A DNA stretch of 57,985 bases from NCBI GenBank assembly GCA_038044925.1, contig JBBSZC010000006.1, positions 1 through 57,985 on the forward strand, read 5' to 3'. The notes below the pieces were generated by a model. The model was not told the DNA's origin and made no database searches. It worked only from the letters and a program-made list of their open reading frames with translations. Source of the stretch: Nanobdellota archaeon (lineage in GTDB: Archaea > Nanobdellota > Nanobdellia > Pacearchaeales > GW2011-AR1). Below, in pieces: positions 1,317 to 45,957 of the stretch (position 1 is the first letter of the stretch; the number at the start of each line of letters is the position of its first letter). The translations under genes and the position numbers were made by a program.

Positions 1317-1319
1317 AAT

Positions 1320-1449
1320 GTCAAGAATCACCAATCTTTGATTGGTGGTATGAAGATGGCCACCCAATCATTTTGGTTCTTGAGCACATTCAGAATTCCA
1401 CGAGTGGTTTAACCACTCGTCAATAGACAAGTGGAATTCTGATGTTTAA
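1320..1449 (+). repeat. Structured intergenic repeat, type A, copy 1
   Basis: gtcaagaat-hairpin(caccaatc/gattggtg)-linker-ggttcttgagcac-att-cagaattccacgagtgg..gtggaattctg-atgtttaa. Homologous to the copies at 31529-31655 and 37590-37724. Confidence 0.8.
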
Positions 1450-11824: not shown

Positions 11825-11895
11825 GGGTGCGTAGGCTAGTGGTAGACTATCTGGCTCCAGCCCAGAAGATGGGGGTTCGATTCCCTCCGTGCCCA
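11825..11895 (+). tRNA. tRNA-Trp (CCA), no intron
   Basis: Hand fold: acceptor gggtgcg/cgtgccc (two G-U pairs), anticodon arm tctgg-ctCCAgc-ccaga, T arm ggggg-ttcgatt-ccctc, discriminator A. The D stem has one mismatch. Confidence 0.8.
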
Positions 11896-11900
11896 TTTTT

Positions 11901-12467
11901 ATGATTGGAAAAGCAAATTATGAATTAATGGAAAGAATAGCCCGAGGAGATAGAGAAGCTTTTAGCGAATTTAGTGAACAATATCGTCAGGAGGTATATA
12001 AAAATGCCTTAAGATTTTGCCCTGAATATGCAGAGGATGTTACTCAAAGAGTATTTACTAAAATATGGATAAAAAGAAATTTTCCTCCTAAAGAAGAAAT
12101 ACTTTCATGGCTTTATGTAATAACTAAGAATGAATCTATAAGTGAGAAAAAGAGGTATTGGAATAAAAATGTTCTTTTAGAAAGTTCTGATGAAGAAATT
12201 GGAAAGATTCTAGAAAATCATCCCTCTAATCTTGATAATCCTAGAGAATATGCAATATCTCAAGAACAACACGAGTTCTTAGGGGATTCTTTTAATGAAT
12301 TAAAGCCTGAATTTAGAGCTGTTTTAATTGGATCTATAGAGGGAAAAAAATATCAGGAAATTGCAGAAGAACAAAAAATATCTATTAGAACAGTTAGGAG
12401 CAGATTAAACAGGGGAAAAATAGAATTAAAAAGAAAAATTAATAAAAGAAAAGATTTATTCGCTTAA
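11901..12467 (+). CDS. Bacterial-type ECF sigma-70 family protein
   Basis: Region 2-like RGDREAFSEFSEQYRQEVYKNALRF..AEDVTQRVFTKIW...WLYVITKNESI. Region 4-like LKPEFRAVLIGSIEGKKYQEIAEEQKISIRTVRSRLNRGKIELKRKI. The track start GTG 11889 lies inside the tRNA, so ATG 11901 is used. Confidence 0.75.
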   Translation: MIGKANYELMERIARGDREAFSEFSEQYRQEVYKNALRFCPEYAEDVTQRVFTKIWIKRNFPPKEEILSWLYVITKNESISEKKRYWNKNVLLESSDEEIGKILENHPSNLDNPREYAISQEQHEFLGDSFNELKPEFRAVLIGSIEGKKYQEIAEEQKISIRTVRSRLNRGKIELKRKINKRKDLFA

Positions 12468-16326: not shown

Positions 16327-16866
16327 ATGGATATATATAAACTAATATGGACACGATTGCAAAGCGAGATTTTTTCATTGCTTTGCTTAAGAGCGGGAGA
16401 AAAATTAAGCCAAAGAGAAATTGCAAAAATCCTTAATGTATCGCCAACTGCTGTGGCTAATTCTATAAAAAAACTAAAAGAAGATAATCTTATCAAAATT
16501 GAAAAAACAAAGACAATCAATTTTATTTCCCTTAATAGAGATGAGCAAAAAGCAATTGAATTAAAGAGGGCTGAAAACCTAAAAAATATCTATTTATCTG
16601 GATTGTCAGATTTTATCGAAAAAGAATTTGGAGGAGGAACTATAATTTTATTTGGAAGCTATTCAAATGGAAGTGATACTAATACATCAGATATAGACAT
16701 TGCCATAATAGGAAGAAAAGACAAGTTAATTGATTTAGAAAAATATGAAAAAATGTTAAACAGAAGGATAAATATAAACTTTTATAATTCGTTTAAAGCT
16801 ATACATAAATACCTAAAAAATAATATTTTAAATGGAATTTTAATCCATGGGGGTGTAGAATTATGA
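16327..16866 (+). CDS. wHTH-fused minimal nucleotidyltransferase (MNT-type antitoxin-like)
   Basis: N-terminal LSQREIAKILNVSPTAVANSIKKL HTH, then LFGSYSNGSDTNTSDIDIAI (GSx10-12DxD NTase motif). Confidence 0.75.
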   Translation: MDIYKLIWTRLQSEIFSLLCLRAGEKLSQREIAKILNVSPTAVANSIKKLKEDNLIKIEKTKTINFISLNRDEQKAIELKRAENLKNIYLSGLSDFIEKEFGGGTIILFGSYSNGSDTNTSDIDIAIIGRKDKLIDLEKYEKMLNRRININFYNSFKAIHKYLKNNILNGILIHGGVEL

Positions 16867-17315
16867 ATCTACTAAATAGTTTTGAATATTTTTTAGATAT
16901 GGGGATAGTAAGAAAAATAAGCAAAGATAAGTCAAGAGCTAGCTTCTTAGTAAAAGAATCCGGGAGTTCGTTAGAAGGATTAAAGGAGAGAATAAAGATT
17001 ATAGGTATAAATGATAAAAATGCAAATTCTATAATTAAAGATTGTTATGATATCATAATGGAGCTTATAAGAGCAAAACTTCTTTTGGACGGATATTATG
17101 CTTCTGGAAATTATGCCCATGAAGCAGAAATTTCTTATCTTAAAAAATTGAATTTTCTTGAAAAAGAAATTTTATTCTTAAACCAGTTAAGATCTTTTAG
17201 AAATTCAATTACTTATCGTGGAGAGATTTTTGACAAAGAATATGCTGAGAAAGTGTTTGACTTCTTAATTAAAATTATGCCTAAATTTAAAAACTTAAAA
17301 GATTTGAGTAGATAA
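16863..17315 (+). CDS. HEPN-domain protein (toxin-like partner of MNT)
   Basis: 4-nt overlap with the MNT gene, about 150 aa all-helical, with YAHEAE and LRSFRNSITY segments. The canonical Rx4-6H is not clear: Tyr sits where His is expected. Confidence 0.6.
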   Translation: MNLLNSFEYFLDMGIVRKISKDKSRASFLVKESGSSLEGLKERIKIIGINDKNANSIIKDCYDIIMELIRAKLLLDGYYASGNYAHEAEISYLKKLNFLEKEILFLNQLRSFRNSITYRGEIFDKEYAEKVFDFLIKIMPKFKNLKDLSR

Positions 17316-17682: not shown

Positions 17683-17712
17683 TTTAATCTTCCATTTCAT
17701 TTTTTAATACAT

Positions 17713-17880
17713 CAAGATTTGCGTTTTATGTAAACTCCTTACTTTAGTTTGTGAGAAAGGAAAAGCAAATCTTGAGTGTGCTCAAGAACTATAAGAACAC
17801 ACTATACATCTCAAAAATCAAAGATTTTTGATGACTGTCAGGAATTTACATTCCTGAAGCTTTAGGGTATAGTTCTTGAC
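17713..17880 (-). repeat. Structured intergenic repeat, type B, expanded copy
   Basis: The reverse complement reads gtcaagaact-[~80-nt insert with two hairpins]-agttcttgagcac-act-caagatttgc..gcaaatcttg. Confidence 0.75.
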
Positions 17881-17986
17881 ATATGGGAAGACTAGGGGGT
17901 TAAAAAAACTTGATTATTCATGGGCCAAAAAAGCTGAAAAATCCAAATATAATAATATTTATAAAGAGAAGTGATTTAGACAAATT

Positions 17987-19483: not shown

Positions 19484-19792
19484 TTAAAACCTTCTTCTAT
19501 TATCATCTCTGTCGCCAAAACTTCTTCTATGGAAGTCTCTTTTCGGTCTTTCTTCCATTGGTCTGGCTTCAGAAACTTTAAGTTCTCTTCCTGCAACGTC
19601 TTTTCCATTAAGCTCTGAAATTACTTTTTTAGCAATTTCTTCGTCTTCAATGGTTACAAATCCAAATCCCTTGGATCTTCCTGAAAACTTGTCTTTGATA
19701 AGAGTAATATCCTGTGCATTGAATCCTGAAAAAAGCTCTTTGAAAGCTTCTTCATCAATACTAAAAGGCAAATTACCTATATGTAGCTTCAT
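19484..19792 (-). CDS. RRM-type RNA-binding protein (bacterial/eukaryal type) with RG-rich tail
   Basis: KLHIGNLPF (RNP2) and KGFGFVTI (RNP1). A ggagg lies upstream of ATG 19792. The track N-terminal extension is rejected. Confidence 0.85.
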   Translation of the reverse strand: MKLHIGNLPFSIDEEAFKELFSGFNAQDITLIKDKFSGRSKGFGFVTIEDEEIAKKVISELNGKDVAGRELKVSEARPMEERPKRDFHRRSFGDRDDNRRRF

Positions 19793-27181: not shown

Positions 27182-27604
27182 ATGGCGTTAAATTATTCGA
27201 AAGAAGTTATGCAAAATTTTATGAACCCAAAGAATATGGGGGAGATAAAAAATGCAGATGGAATTGGGAAAGTTGGAAATCCTACTTGCGGAGATATAAT
27301 GTGGGTTTATATTAAAGTTGAGAGGAATAAAAAAGGAAAGGAATTTCTGAAAGATGTAAAATTCAAAACATTTGGGTGCGCTGCAGCAATAGCTACTTCT
27401 TCTATGATTACACAGCTTGCTAAAGGAAAGAGCTTGAAAGATGCTGAAAAAATAACACGAAATGATGTAGCTAAATCCCTGAATGGACTTCCTGCAATAA
27501 AAATGCATTGTTCTAATCTTGCAGATGAAGCTTTAAGAAAGGCAATTGAAAATTATAGGAAAGGGGCATTTAGAAAAGATGGAATGTCAAAAATAAATAA
27601 TTAA
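27182..27604 (+). CDS. iscU: Fe-S cluster scaffold NifU/IscU
   Basis: GNPTCGD, FGCAAAIA and HCSNLA supply the three conserved Cys. Confidence 0.9.
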   Translation: MALNYSKEVMQNFMNPKNMGEIKNADGIGKVGNPTCGDIMWVYIKVERNKKGKEFLKDVKFKTFGCAAAIATSSMITQLAKGKSLKDAEKITRNDVAKSLNGLPAIKMHCSNLADEALRKAIENYRKGAFRKDGMSKINN

Positions 27605-27626
27605 AAAACAATAAGTAAAAAGAAGA

Positions 27627-28271
27627 ATGGTATATCAATTAAAAAAACTTGAGTATGATTATGATAGTTTAGAGCCGTATATAGATGAGCAGACAATGAA
27701 AGTTCATCATGATAAGCATCATCAGGCTTATGTAGACAAGTATAATGCTGCTATTGAAAAATTTCCTGAATTACAGAAAAAAACCCCTGAAAAAGTTATT
27801 GAAAATTTAGATAAAATTCATGAAGATATAAAAATAATTGTGAAAAACAATGGCGGAGGAGTTGTTAATCATAATTTCTTCTGGACAATTTTAAAAAAAG
27901 ATGTTGAAATAGAAGGAGACATTTTAGATGCGATTAACAAGGAATTTGAAAGCTTTATAGAGTTTAAGAAAAAATTCTCTGAAATAGCTCTGAGTGTTTT
28001 TGGAAGCGGGTGGGCTTGGCTTATTATAGATAAGAAAACTAAAAAACTGCAAATTATTAAAACACTGAATCAGGACTCTCCTTTGAGTATTGAAAAAATA
28101 CCCCTGCTTTGCATAGATATATGGGAGCATGCTTATTATTTGAAATACCAGAACAGAAGAGCAGAGTATATTGAAAATTTTTTTAATGTGATAAATTGGG
28201 AAAAGGTGAATGAAAATTATATTTCAGTAAATTCAGCAAAGGTGAAAGGAGGTAAGACCTTTAAAAAATGA
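27627..28271 (+). CDS. sod: Fe/Mn superoxide dismutase
   Basis: HHDKHH and DIWEHAYYL motifs. Confidence 0.9.
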   Translation: MVYQLKKLEYDYDSLEPYIDEQTMKVHHDKHHQAYVDKYNAAIEKFPELQKKTPEKVIENLDKIHEDIKIIVKNNGGGVVNHNFFWTILKKDVEIEGDILDAINKEFESFIEFKKKFSEIALSVFGSGWAWLIIDKKTKKLQIIKTLNQDSPLSIEKIPLLCIDIWEHAYYLKYQNRRAEYIENFFNVINWEKVNENYISVNSAKVKGGKTFKK

Positions 28272-28281
28272 AAACAAGAAA

Positions 28282-28836
28282 ATGGTATTAATAAACACAA
28301 GGGCTCCGGATTTTGAGCTCAAGGGATTTTATGAAGGAAAGATAAAGGAATTTGATTTATTTAAATATAGAGGGAAGTGGGTTGTTTTGTTTTTTTACCC
28401 TGCTGATTTCAGCTTTATATGCCCAACTGAGCTTGGAGAGCTTGCAGATAGATACGAAGAGTTAAAAAATATGAATGTTGAGATTTTCAGCATAAGCACC
28501 GATACAGCATTTGTTCACAGGGCTTGGCATACTTTTACCCCAATAATAAATAAAGTTAAATTTCCTATGCTTGCAGATCCTACAGGGAAAGTTTCTATAG
28601 ACTATGGGGCTTATATTGAAGAAGAAGGTGTAAGCACTAGGGCAACCTTTATAATTGATCCGTTTGGAATGATAAAAACTTTTGAAATACACGATAATAA
28701 AGTAGGAAGAAACATTGACGAATTAATGAGAAAAATAAAAGCTCTTCAATTTTTGGACAAGAACCAGGATTATTTATGCCCTGTAAACTGGAATGAAGGG
28801 AAAGAGATTATAAGTGTTAAGAGGGTTTTTGAGTGA
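28282..28836 (+). CDS. Peroxiredoxin (AhpC/TSA family)
   Basis: FYPADFSFICPTEL peroxidatic Cys motif. Confidence 0.9.
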   Translation: MVLINTRAPDFELKGFYEGKIKEFDLFKYRGKWVVLFFYPADFSFICPTELGELADRYEELKNMNVEIFSISTDTAFVHRAWHTFTPIINKVKFPMLADPTGKVSIDYGAYIEEEGVSTRATFIIDPFGMIKTFEIHDNKVGRNIDELMRKIKALQFLDKNQDYLCPVNWNEGKEIISVKRVFE

Positions 28837-28852
28837 AAAATAAATAAAGAAA

Positions 28853-29389
28853 ATGGAAAAAACTATTCGTATTTTAGTGGACGAACACAAGAACATACTT
28901 GCTATAGCAGATGTTATTGAAAAAGAATGCAATGAAATTGATAAAGGTAAAAAAGTGGATGAAGAATTTTTTAGAAAAGTTATAGATTTTATAAGAAATT
29001 ATGCAGACAAATTTCATCACGCAAAAGAAGAGGATATTTTATTTAAGGAATTCTGTAAGACTGCAGAAAAAGGAGGTTTGCATTGCAATCCTGTTGAGCA
29101 GATGCTTTACGAGCATGATTCTGGAAGAAATTTTGTAAAAGGAATTGAAGATAGAATGAAAGAAAAGAATCGGAAAAAGGTTATTGAAAATGCTTTGTGT
29201 TATGTTCAGTTAATTAGAGAGCATATTTTCAAAGAGGATAATATTTTATACCCAATGGCTGAAGAAGCACTAAGCATGAAAACGCAAAAAGAAATGTTAA
29301 GCAAATTTGAAAAAATTGGGAAAGATAAGAAAAAAGAGATTAAGAGTTATTTGGCTTTTATTAAAAAAATTGTTGAAAATAAAAAATGA
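28853..29389 (+). CDS. Hemerythrin-like HHE cation-binding domain protein
   Basis: DEHK.., FHHAKEEDILF, YEHD and HIFKEDNILYP His/Glu ligand pattern. Confidence 0.7.
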   Translation: MEKTIRILVDEHKNILAIADVIEKECNEIDKGKKVDEEFFRKVIDFIRNYADKFHHAKEEDILFKEFCKTAEKGGLHCNPVEQMLYEHDSGRNFVKGIEDRMKEKNRKKVIENALCYVQLIREHIFKEDNILYPMAEEALSMKTQKEMLSKFEKIGKDKKKEIKSYLAFIKKIVENKK

Positions 29390-30225
29390 TTGCAGGTTTT
29401 ATAATAACTTTTAGGGAGACTTTAGAAGCTGCTTTAATAGTAGGAATAATTCTAAGTTATTTAGTTAGGACAAAACAGACAAAATACAATAATATTGTTT
29501 ATATTGGAATAGTTTCTGGTCTAATGGCAAGCATTATTGGAGCTTTATTATTTATTAATATAGCTGGTGGATTTACCGGGAGAACAGAAGAAATTTTTGA
29601 AGGAGTAACTATGCTAATTGGGGCTATATTATTAACTACTATGATACTGTGGATGATGAAGCAGAGACATATCGCCTTAGAGTTAGAGAAAAAAGTTGAA
29701 AGAGAGGTTGTTAAAGCCCATAAGTTTGGCTTATTTCTATTGGTATTTATAGCTGTTTTAAGAGAAGGGATAGAAACAGTTATTTTTTTAGGGGCAGCGA
29801 GTTTTGTTTCAGTAGGCAATACTCTAATTTTAGGAATAGCAGGAGTTATAGCAGCTGTTTTTTTAGGTTACCTTATATTTGTTAGCTCAATGAAAATTGA
29901 TATAAAAAAGTTTTTTGCCATTACTAATATTATATTAATTTTGTTTGCTGCTGGTTTAGTTGCTCATAGTATTCATGAGCTTCAAGAAGCTAAAGTTATT
30001 CCTTTTGTAGTTGAGGAGATTTGGGATATTAACCCCTCTGCACCTCAAGCAGAAGAAGGGATTTATCCTTTATTGCATGAAAAAGGATATATTGGAAGCA
30101 TTTTAAAAGGATTGTTTGGATATAATGGGAATCCGTCATTAACTGAAGTTTTAGCATATCTTGCTTATCTGTTGTTTGTCTTTATATTATGGAAAAATAT
30201 TAAAAAAGTTCATAGAATTATTTAA
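29386..30225 (+). CDS. FTR1/EfeU-family iron permease
   Basis: Two RExxE motifs (FRETLEA, LREGIET) within a 7-TM layout. Confidence 0.85.
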   Translation: MIAGFIITFRETLEAALIVGIILSYLVRTKQTKYNNIVYIGIVSGLMASIIGALLFINIAGGFTGRTEEIFEGVTMLIGAILLTTMILWMMKQRHIALELEKKVEREVVKAHKFGLFLLVFIAVLREGIETVIFLGAASFVSVGNTLILGIAGVIAAVFLGYLIFVSSMKIDIKKFFAITNIILILFAAGLVAHSIHELQEAKVIPFVVEEIWDINPSAPQAEEGIYPLLHEKGYIGSILKGLFGYNGNPSLTEVLAYLAYLLFVFILWKNIKKVHRII

Positions 30226-30373
30226 ACTTCAGAATTCCACTCATTTTTAATAAAAAATTTTCAGGTTCTTTTTTAACCAAAAATGGTTAGTTTTAAATAC
30301 TAATAAACTGAGATAAATTAGATAATATGGAAAAATTTTTAATCCTGCATTTTCATGGATTTAGCTGAAGAAA

Positions 30374-31528: not shown

Positions 31529-31655
31529 TTAAACATCAGAATTCCACTCATCACAGACGAGTGGTTTGAATCACTCGTGGAATTCTGAGTGTGCTCAAGA
31601 ACCACACGAAGCTTGGCATTTTCATGCCACCAGTCAAAGACTGGTGGTTCTTGAC
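31529..31655 (-). repeat. Structured intergenic repeat, type A, copy 2 (inverted orientation)
   Basis: The reverse complement reads gtcaagaacc-accagtc/gactggt hairpin-ggcatg..-ggttcttgagcac-act-cagaattccacgagtg..gagtggaattctg-atgtttaa. Confidence 0.85.
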
Positions 31656-31698
31656 AAATTATAGAAAAGAATAAAAAGAAGAGTTTATTATATTTTAT

Positions 31699-37578: not shown

Positions 37579-37589
37579 AAAATCCATAT

Positions 37590-37724
37590 GTCAAGAACCA
37601 TCAGTCACAGACTGATGGCATGTTATTTCTGATATATTAATTAATGGTTCTTGAGCACTGCCAGAATTCCACGAGTGGTTATTCAACCACTCGTCAATAG
37701 ACGAGTGGAATTCTGGAGTTTAAA
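37590..37724 (+). repeat. Structured intergenic repeat, type A, copy 3 (archetype)
   Basis: gtcaagaacc-atcagtc/gactgat hairpin-ggcatg..-ggttcttgagcac-tgc-cagaattccacgagtggtt..aaccactcgt..gagtggaattctg-gagtttaaac. Confidence 0.85.
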
Positions 37725-37798
37725 CAGATAAGAATTCTTTTAGACAAATTTTAAAGATAAAAATATATAAATTAAAATATTTTTCCTTAAAAATAATA

Positions 37799-39104: not shown

Positions 39105-39194
39105 AAGAATTTCTATGGTAAATTAAATAAATCCAGCGATATTTAGCTTGAACAAATATTAAAAATATAATCTAATAAAATATAACTTACTCTT

Positions 39195-39304
39195 GTCAAG
39201 AACCATACACTAAAGTGTATGGCGTGTCTGGTTCTTGAGCACCCCAAAATTTGATTTGCTTACTCACGAGTTAAAACAGGGAGTTTGCGCAAATACAAAT
39301 TTTG
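39195..39304 (+). repeat. Structured intergenic repeat, type B, compact copy
   Basis: gtcaagaacc-atacac/gtgtat hairpin-ggcgtgtct-ggttcttgagcac-ccc-aaaatttgatttgc..gcaaatacaaatttt. Confidence 0.8.
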
Positions 39305-39428
39305 CTGTATCAATTAAATTCTATTTTTCACTTTTAACTAAATAAACACTTTAAAGTGAAAAAAATATATTGTATGTATATTTCAGCACAATAAGATTTA
39401 AATAGGATTTAGTTTTAAAAAATTCTGA

Positions 39429-45814: not shown

Positions 45815-45957
45815 GGCTTCGTAGCTCAGCCTGGTTAGAGCACTAGCCTTTTAATTCGTATGAGGAACCTAGGTTCCTCCTAACAAGTCACCACCTCCTC
45901 TAAGAGAAGGTGATAAAGGACAGCTAGGTGTCGGGGGTTCAAATCCCCTCGAGGCCA
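45815..45957 (+). tRNA. tRNA-Lys (UUU) with a ~68-nt intron at the canonical 37/38 position
   Basis: Acceptor ggcttcg/cgaggcc, D arm gctc-agcctggtta-gagc, anticodon stem ctagc(45843-47)/gctag(45923-27), loop ctTTTa, T arm ggggg-ttcaaat-cccct. The intron (~45854-45921) holds the perfect palindrome gaggaacctaggttcctc. Confidence 0.85.

Follow-up and report, generated by a model that had tools for sequence, protein, structure and literature searches.

Modular hairpin repeats between the genes of a nanobdellotal archaeon are probably mobile DNA rather than RNA genes

Is a strongly folded element that recurs between the genes of an archaeon a gene for a small RNA, or is it a piece of DNA that moves? 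The question is raised by copy A3, a 130-nt element at 37589..37718 on the plus strand of contig JBBSZC010000006.1 of a Nanobdellota archaeon (the window below means the full 57,985-nt stretch that was analysed), whose host has about 30% G+C and carries archaeal RNA polymerase genes. An earlier note, made from the sequence alone, had proposed either a multi-copy non-coding RNA (ncRNA) family or an element resembling a MITE (miniature inverted-repeat transposable element). We favour the mobile-element side of this proposal, although not in the form of a classical MITE, given that no target-site duplication (TSD), no terminal inverted repeat (TIR) spanning the ends and no related transposase gene were found. 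With a probability of roughly 0.6, A3 is one copy of a modular, non-autonomous, hairpin-built DNA repeat family that resembles the repetitive extragenic palindromes (REP) and bacterial interspersed mosaic elements (BIME) of bacteria, or the palindrome-associated transposable elements (PATEs) of haloarchaea. It is most likely not a working RNA gene, and a functional RNA and an exapted role, even when taken together, are clearly the less expected outcome. The mobile-element reading is favoured because G·T pairs are not in excess in the stems, both strands fold, orientation is random, copies decay neutrally and insertion is precise.

The basic unit of the family is a hairpin of ~25-30 nt with the conserved foot 5'-YGTCARRA...TYYTGA-G-CR-3', in which the G is bulged, and minimal units of 25-30 nt such as TGTCAAGAACT-TTC-AGTTCTTGAGCAC do occur. 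Types A and B open with a 5' module, where stem P1 surrounds a linker preceded by a variable P2 hairpin, and continue with a long P3 hairpin. P1 reaches up to 12 bp and reads T-A, G-C, bulged G and then TCAAGAACC/GGTTCTTGA, with further compensated variants (TCAAAAAC/GTTTTTGA and TCAGGAAT/ATTCCTGA); variants starting with CGTC end in GCGC rather than GCAC, which makes the first base part of the element. In the common, short form of the module P2 has 6-8 bp of free sequence, a TAAA loop (in 55 modules, as against none with TTTA) and the linker GGCGTGY, in place of which the long module of type A has GGCATGA..ATGCC. P3 begins 1-3 nt past GCAC on the foot TCA[AG][AG]A...T[CT][CT]TGA; there is free variation in the distal stem, 73 hairpins having 53 different 12-nt arms. 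Hairpin loops range from 3 to >80 nt across copies. A hairpin array at L030 3350-3830 contains at least 12 hairpins, and the metagenome-assembled genome (MAG) C20_maxbin.123 holds larger composites within further stems. The modularity seen in the earlier note thus extends over units, composites, arrays and extra units inside copy B2 of the window. A3 itself folds at -53.5 kcal/mol (z = -6.4), with a 9-bp P1 enclosing P2 and a three-way P3, and its parts are as follows.

37589..37718, plus strand: the studied element, type A, copy A3, 130 nt, from sequence, fold and alignment to a covariance model (CM)
37589-37599 with 37646-37657, plus strand: P1, with G37655 bulged; its outer pairs and its bulge are taken from RNAalifold and from alignment to the CM
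37600-37616, plus strand: P2 hairpin, from the fold
37617-37645, plus strand: linker GGCATG..., from the sequence
37661-37716, plus strand: P3, a three-way hairpin with outer stem CCAGAATTCCAC/GTGGAATTCTGG and inner hairpins at 37673-37692 and 37693-37702
37717-37718, plus strand: terminal AG, the 3' boundary being set by analogy with a filled and empty site
37719..37725, plus strand: TTTAAAC motif directly 3' of A3, fitting the consensus T(T/C)T(C/T/A)AAA that trails most copies

Both ends differ slightly from those first proposed. The copy had been started at 37590, and its start moves one base earlier to T 37589 because this T pairs with the A of GCAC across the bulged G and covaries from T-A to C-G in relatives. 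A gtttaa tail had been counted as the 3' end; the tail sequence is there, but the element probably ends at 37718, 2 nt past the foot of P3, and TTTAAAC would then probably be flank or preferred target rather than element. The proposed competition of two CGAGTGG segments for one CCACTCG is real and yields an alternative 9-bp hairpin, CCACTCGTC/GACGAGTGG.

How common is the element? Its density in the window is 5 copies and 1 remnant per 58 kb, those other than A3 being the following.

1319..1444, plus strand: type A, copy A1, 2 nt away from where a divergent U32 peptidase gene starts (start codon at 1316)
31534..31657, minus strand: type A, copy A2, from sequence and CM
39194..39306, plus strand: type B, copy B1, whose short 5' module has linker GGCGTGTC and P2 CATACAC-TAAA-GTGTATG; its P3 differs and reads CAAAATTTGATTTGC...GCAAATACAAATTTTG
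17710..17882, minus strand: type B, copy B2, whose P2 loop holds two additional mini-hairpins, TCAGGAAT..ATTCCTGA and TCAAAAATC..GATTTTTGA
30221..30242, minus strand: 22 nt left over from a type A 3' end, the reverse complement of GAGTGGAATTCTGAAGTTTAAA, overlapping the stop codon of an FTR1 gene

The three type A copies, which are mutually 76-83% alike, lie where the earlier note had placed them and have their parts in the order it gave; the P2 arms that it paired (caccaatc/gattggtg, accagtc/gactggt, atcagtc/gactgat and, in type B, atacac/gtgtat) are all correct. B1 has the top CM score within the window, 73.4 bits. Allowing at most 2 mismatches, GGTTCTTGAGCAC occurs 5 times in the window against 0.72 expected, a count that 0 of 100 shuffles reach, and with at most 1 mismatch CAGAATTCCAC occurs 9 times against 0.78 expected, which again no shuffle reaches. 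Every window copy is intergenic in public gene calls, as had been proposed. The elements are also GC-richer than their flanks in 4 of the 5 copies (0.39-0.44 vs 0.22-0.35), with B2 at 0.32 vs 0.30.

Beyond the window, a scan for the exact 5'-module pattern gave at least 111 stretches in species-representative genomes and at least 119 in metagenome contigs; the analysis covered 228 instances from 217 loci, among which 184 distinct 5' modules and 171 distinct P3 hairpins were counted. The 5' module is present at no fewer than 217 other loci, nearly all in MAGs of Woese-, Pace- and Nanoarchaeota or in groundwater, lake and sediment metagenomes. Exceptions are about nine chance matches in bacteria and one Methanoregula, and viral contigs of IMG/VR gave zero. 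The family thus appears to be specific to DPANN archaea of these three groups. DPANN MAGs often carry many copies, and their contigs frequently end in a repeat. Assemblies of the same population (GCA_964363295.1, contig CAYIHG010000002.1; Hainich groundwater well H43) carry all copies of the window, and contigs of other assemblies begin or end inside elements at window positions 37595, 37686 and 17811, the last within B2, which is repeat-like behaviour. In Rfam 15 nothing but three tRNAs in the window passed the gathering threshold, and the best local matches under permissive settings scored 22.6 bits where the family threshold is 80, and 21 where it is 86, in line with the earlier view that they belong to no familiar RNA class. 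A literature search returned the element motif in no paper; on DPANN repeats it returned only a MITE census of general scope and a survey of genomes, and no description of REP- or BIME-like repeats in DPANN archaea was found.

Do the stems then speak for RNA? It had been claimed that the changes between copies are covariation rather than simple conservation, and the compensatory changes are indeed significant. In 99 CM-aligned 5' modules, 96.4% of the pairing cells are complementary versus 86.8% in shuffled alignments, and the covariation score is 0.180 versus 0.065 (reached in 0 of 500 shuffles) and at most 0.044 with slid partners, with two-sided changes in all five P2 pairs. The arms of P3 are complementary at 98% in the foot and 81% in the distal part, and at 48% and 36% when arms are swapped between copies. 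However, the covariation is not of the RNA type. In an RNA made from a single strand, G·U pairs should be tolerated and A·C pairs avoided, and here G·T pairs show no surplus over A·C: P3 pairs (n = 1825) comprise 1782 Watson-Crick, 17 G·T and 26 A·C pairs, and P2 pairs (n = 904) comprise 834, 36 and 34. The stems are ~97% Watson-Crick. Moreover, A3 folds equally well on its reverse strand, where it reaches -53.0 kcal/mol (z = -8.1). Loops are inverted in some copies (AAA versus TTT), and the inner P3 segment of L021 (4174-4240) is inverted relative to that of L106, an otherwise similar type B copy, which amounts to a flip of DNA between inverted arms.

Movement of the units can be followed in type C, a 96-nt repeat of two hairpins. 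Type C loci include L057 2024-2124, L063 1676-1771, L091 5569-5716, L007 3779-3873 and at least 8 more; the hairpins are TAGAGAATTCTGG..CCAGAATTCTCT and then ATGGACAATTCT..AGAATTGTCCATA, and their stems covary across several genomes. The repeat is uninterrupted in L063 and L057, which belong to the same genome, and in L007, and in L091 it holds a 48-nt two-hairpin insert (CGTCAAGAACAAAGTTCTTGAACGC + TTCGAGAATTAAAATTCTCGATG) between GGACAAT and TCTTAAAA. The insert runs from the Y of YGTC to 2 nt past the foot of its second hairpin, and its junctions show no duplication. Since TCTTAAAA is present in the empty type C sites and resembles the T(T/C)T(N)AAA that trails most copies, the apparent 3' tail of the family is probably a preferred target. 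Each subfamily has its own form of this post-element motif (TTTCAA in 10 of the 14 H32 copies), and the target motif of IS200/IS605 elements is specific in the same way. Nested insertions are found in L023, where one copy lies in another, in B2 of the window, and when L002/L068 are set against L098. Duplications of 5 nt or more flank 7 of 87 sites against 5.3 expected in shuffles, which is no excess. For the window copies no orthologous empty sites were found, synteny with L106 and L015 breaking at the relevant spacer. New copies arise by precise insertion without target-site duplication, often in A/T-rich sites, in loops of other units or at gene boundaries. Once inside a genome they decay neutrally, stems like loops: the 14 near-identical type B copies of MAG H32-bin099_1 have 25 substitutions in 80 stem columns versus 14 in 43 unpaired columns, none of them compensated, and the 3' arm of P2 is deleted in 4 of the 14.

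This pattern bears on two kinds of known mobile structure. A classical MITE would be an internally deleted DDE transposon with TIRs that moves by cut-and-paste and leaves a TSD. Like the archaeal MITEs of Sulfolobus and haloarchaea, the elements are small (50-180 nt), non-coding, intergenic, multi-copy, nested and assembly-breaking, and a MITE census records one Woesearchaeon with 105 MITEs per Mb (PMC11602168). P1 also starts with TG and ends with CA, as do many DDE transposon ends. Yet a duplication is lacking among the sites counted above and at the filled/empty junction; the outer ends are not mutual inverted repeats, since the 5' TGTCAAGAAC and the 3' ...TCTTGA+NG share only an internal TCAAGA core and the repeats are local hairpins; and no relative bearing a transposase, hence no parent insertion sequence (IS), was found in ~1.5 Mb of loci. 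We regard this explanation as already largely refuted and very improbable; a full-length IS with TGTCAAGAAC...GTTCTTGACA ends and a 1-3 bp duplication would revive it.

The slimmest chance is given to folded recombination sites of archaeal integrons, similar to attC, an idea that is already disfavoured. Integrons exist in Nanoarchaeota (PMC9668308), and the elements share with attC a folded single-strand palindrome that is imperfect, an extrahelical base (here G), an invariant AAC...GTT and a centre of very variable length. One locus of MAG C20_maxbin.123 even resembles a 1031-nt circle with one small open reading frame (ORF) and one element. The attC consensus is unmet all the same, the R-box being RRRAAC/GTTYYY rather than RYYYAAC/GTTRRRY, with purines and pyrimidines swapped in CAAGAAC/GTTCTTG; instead of cassette arrays there are single sites scattered in random orientation among housekeeping genes, and ORF clustering over 210 loci gave no integron integrase near elements. 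The circle-like locus, L102 (1172 nt), has identical first and last 141 nt, which gives the 1031-nt cycle, and carries a thioredoxin-like 129-aa ORF and one composite repeat; it may be either a small circle or a gene between two identical repeats. In L166 and L174 a similar 125-aa thioredoxin-like ORF lies between two inverted elements.

Is the position of the copies relative to genes that of a gene or of a regulatory site? The flanking genes are arranged ++ in 20 cases, -- in 19, -+ in 16 and +- in 14, that is, orientation is random and gene 3' ends are not preferred. Upstream flanks are unrelated and share no sequence at promoter distance. Clustering of ORFs of at least 100 aa from 210 loci, and earlier from 100 loci, gave no recurrent protein family beside the elements; the genes nearby are ordinary ones (Fic, TrmB, RNase Z, S8e and others), and inverted element pairs enclose a putative toxin-antitoxin-like pair, ribosomal proteins or a thioredoxin-like ORF but no transposase. 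The commonest neighbour, at 13 of 210 loci, is a winged helix-turn-helix (wHTH) nucleotidyltransferase, often with a HEPN-like partner. The segment beside B2 at window 16327-17315 (+) holds such a wHTH-nucleotidyltransferase gene (MNT-like) and, after it, a 150-aa gene that matches nothing in Pfam.

Some boundaries are very tight. About seven elements lie within 2 nt of a divergent start codon (window 1316/1319 and L025, L032, L042, L052, L086 and L090), and about twelve convergent genes have their stop inside the post-element motif, which may be explained by the stop codons that the opposite strand of this motif (TTGAAA/TTTAAA/TTTAGA) contains. Where a start lies 0-2 nt from an element, neither a ribosome-binding site nor a normally spaced promoter can fit. 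A promoter within the element was considered for the abutting genes and rejected: the sole TATA-like run, in the P2 loop, lies near -20, which by eye is too close. At the 3' side, the last gene of an iron and oxidative-stress cluster at window 27182-30225 (+), which comprises NifU, Fe-SOD, peroxiredoxin, hemerythrin and FTR1 permease, has its stop codon in the repeat remnant 30221-30242.

Such exact positions would be expected if repeats of selfish origin were now used by the host in cis and in either orientation, as RNA hairpins that end, stabilise or process transcripts, or as folded or cruciform DNA sites for proteins, as has been proposed for bacterial REP and BIME. Selection on both strands would also account for stems made of Watson-Crick pairs only, and the family has persisted long over DPANN lineages. 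But no selection on stems is visible within a genome, the four gene arrangements are equally frequent with divergent pairs included, and tight abutment is also expected from very short spacers combined with an A/T target preference, so that we consider host use improbable. If it were true, it would bear on how transcripts start, end and are processed where intergenic space is almost nil.

Which enzyme could move these repeats? Under the mobile-element reading, the repeats are probably moved in trans; the transposition intermediate would be single-stranded DNA with its hairpins folded, and the enzyme would resemble a transposase of the HUH/Y1 type, similar to those of IS200 or to the REP-associated tyrosine transposases (RAYT). 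These archaea are clearly a natural setting for single-strand, hairpin-directed transposition. At L057, part of the MAG that carries the type B burst, a Y1 gene (found by tblastn; Pfam Y1_Tnp, E = 5e-30) directly adjoins a type C family member with its 5' end. Its homologues of ~145 aa number at least 965 at E <1e-20; some bear Pace- or Nanoarchaeota names, and contigs <2 kb carry most of them. In 256 Nanobdellota proteomes, K07491 is reported as the sole KEGG orthology (KO) entry for a transposase with strict matches (preprint 10.64898/2026.05.13.725050). In aquifer metagenomes one IS200-type element (L241-L250, gene mostly at ~2501-2944), its 147-aa TnpA identical throughout, recurs in at least 24 different contexts. 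That a Y1 enzyme moves the present family may be suggested from this setting, but we hold it doubtful. An autonomous parent with distant P1 half-sites was also sought, with chance matches as the only outcome.

Several findings weigh against the mobile-element reading. The cognate enzyme was not found: ORF clustering over the 210 loci gave no transposase, and scans for HUH/Y1 motifs in 1.57 Mb of element-bearing loci were empty, L057 excepted. The end hairpins of the DPANN IS200-type elements (CCCTAAGG-TCTTG-CCTTAGGG and CCACGAGG-TCTTG-CCTCGTGG, with TTGAT as left flank or target and GGTTCAC as right end) are unlike the TCAAGA-foot hairpins, and a CM search found the 5' module in 0 of 17 IS200 loci. 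In the short 5' module the unpaired motifs, loop TAAA and linker GGCGTGY, keep a fixed orientation, which fits a functional molecule as well as it fits a recognition site for transposition. Type A elements share 76-89% identity between species-level genomes in which the DNA of coding genes is only 64-75% identical, the window copies being up to 89% identical to those of other species-level genomes, for example L084 from another continent. The conservation of P1 itself is partly forced by the search pattern. This identity between genomes, together with the loop and linker of fixed orientation, points to constraint.

If each copy were a small RNA gene, or an RNA domain with a fold, loop and linker that the cell uses, the strong fold, the significant covariation, the G+C above background, the excess of element over gene identity, the unpaired motifs kept in a single orientation and the higher CM score on the forward strand (~75 bits versus ~22 on the reverse) would all follow. 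The balance of G·U and A·C, the equally good fold of the reverse strand, the lack of a conserved upstream promoter position between unrelated flanks, the random orientation to genes, stems that mutate at the rate of loops within a genome and lose P2 in 4 of 14 copies, the nesting and the inverted inner segment, and the absence of an Rfam match all speak against this, and we judge an ncRNA family to be quite unlikely. Preferably, the constraint is transposition competence in active lineages, with a cellular role or horizontal spread as alternatives. Hairpin integrity would then be selected only in lineages that still transpose, and selection so limited would lead to Watson-Crick covariation between subfamilies with no G·U excess.

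A related and rather unlikely possibility is that the family is a long-lived, largely vertically kept DPANN repeat system analogous to the bacterial pairing of REP doublets forming hairpins (REPINs) with RAYT, served by a yet-unrecognised enzyme, or that its composites were exapted as a folded nucleic-acid module. It would explain the conservation across continents and species, the fixed TAAA and GGCGTG and the exact abutment to starts and stops, and candidate roles would be a hairpin that processes or insulates at gene boundaries, or a scaffold RNA. Under the mobile-element reading, too, the family matters in practice. DPANN genomes are tiny and gene-dense, and there the repeats break metagenome assemblies, contigs ending within them; because their stems covary, they can be mistaken for ncRNA genes; and they mark transposition activity that is probably single-strand and hairpin-directed. 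Compensatory stem changes alone do not prove RNA function, and it is the balance of G·U and A·C, together with decay within genomes, that separates an RNA from a DNA repeat.

Three further features of the window deserve mention. A tRNA gene at 45815-45957 (+), interrupted by a 69-nt intron and missed by ARAGORN, scores 53.4 bits with the Rfam tRNA model; its anticodon loop CUUUUAA makes it probably tRNA-Lys(UUU). A relation of the elements to tRNA introns or their bulge-helix-bulge (BHB) motif was rejected, in that this intron is unrelated and the P1 bulge has 1 nt rather than the two 3-nt bulges of a BHB. At 11889-12467 (+) a 192-aa protein combines Sigma70_r2 (3e-7) and Sigma70_r4_2 (4e-9), the architecture of a bacterial-type sigma factor in an archaeon. 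At 19484-19792 (-) a 102-aa protein with an RNA-recognition motif (RRM_1, E = 2.7e-18) adjoins an Lhr-type helicase; RRM domains are unusual in archaea.

Among known systems, IS200/IS605 elements share with the DPANN repeats insertion without duplication, a hairpin at either end and a short conserved motif that stands beside one end only and is already there at the empty site, in a setting in which Y1 transposases abound in the same archaea. In contrast to them, no DPANN copy contains tnpA or tnpB, the local IS200-type elements (L241-L250) having an unrelated TCTTG loop, target and right end. From hairpin foot to element end there are only 0-2 nt, which leaves no room for the guide tetranucleotide that an IS608-type TnpA uses. 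PATEs, the IS200/IS605-derived non-autonomous elements of haloarchaea (PMC3119063), likewise have end hairpins and insert without duplication.

The likeness to bacterial REP sequences is closer. REP/RAYT systems have been described as bacterial, only IS200-type Y1 proteins having been reported from Archaea (PMC6006769), and the archaeal host is accordingly one difference. Others are that composites of 113-173 nt are copied as fixed blocks, that gene 3' ends are not preferred and that the stems are not enriched in G·T. Compared with the CGTC/TGTC-tagged REPs, which have an unpaired CGTC (or TGTC/CCTC) tag at one end, a stem of 8-9 bp, a loop of 4-5 nt and a 3-nt CCA tail, the DPANN tag (TGTC in nearly all units, CGTC in variants) can pair (TG-CA, TC-GA) across the bulged G, its first base covarying, the loops are far more variable in length and the tail is GAGCAC. 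Shared with REP and BIME are short, intergenic, imperfect palindromes in high copy number, subfamilies set apart by complementary stem changes, a target that is not duplicated, and mosaic clusters of the BIME kind (the L030 array, the C20_maxbin.123 composites and the units in B2). Shared, too, are a 5' TGTC/CGTC tag and, after it, a stem whose first pairs are A·T, two of them in AAGAAC(C)/(G)GTTCTT as in the tagged REPs, and a short conserved 3' tail. Nor do the CGTC/TGTC-tagged REPs have a transposase gene of their own in the neighbourhood (Di Nocera et al. 2013; PMC3733652). Overall, the closest known kind is the REP/BIME/REPIN class of bacteria, particularly its CGTC/TGTC-tagged superfamily, followed by the IS200/IS605-derived non-autonomous elements.

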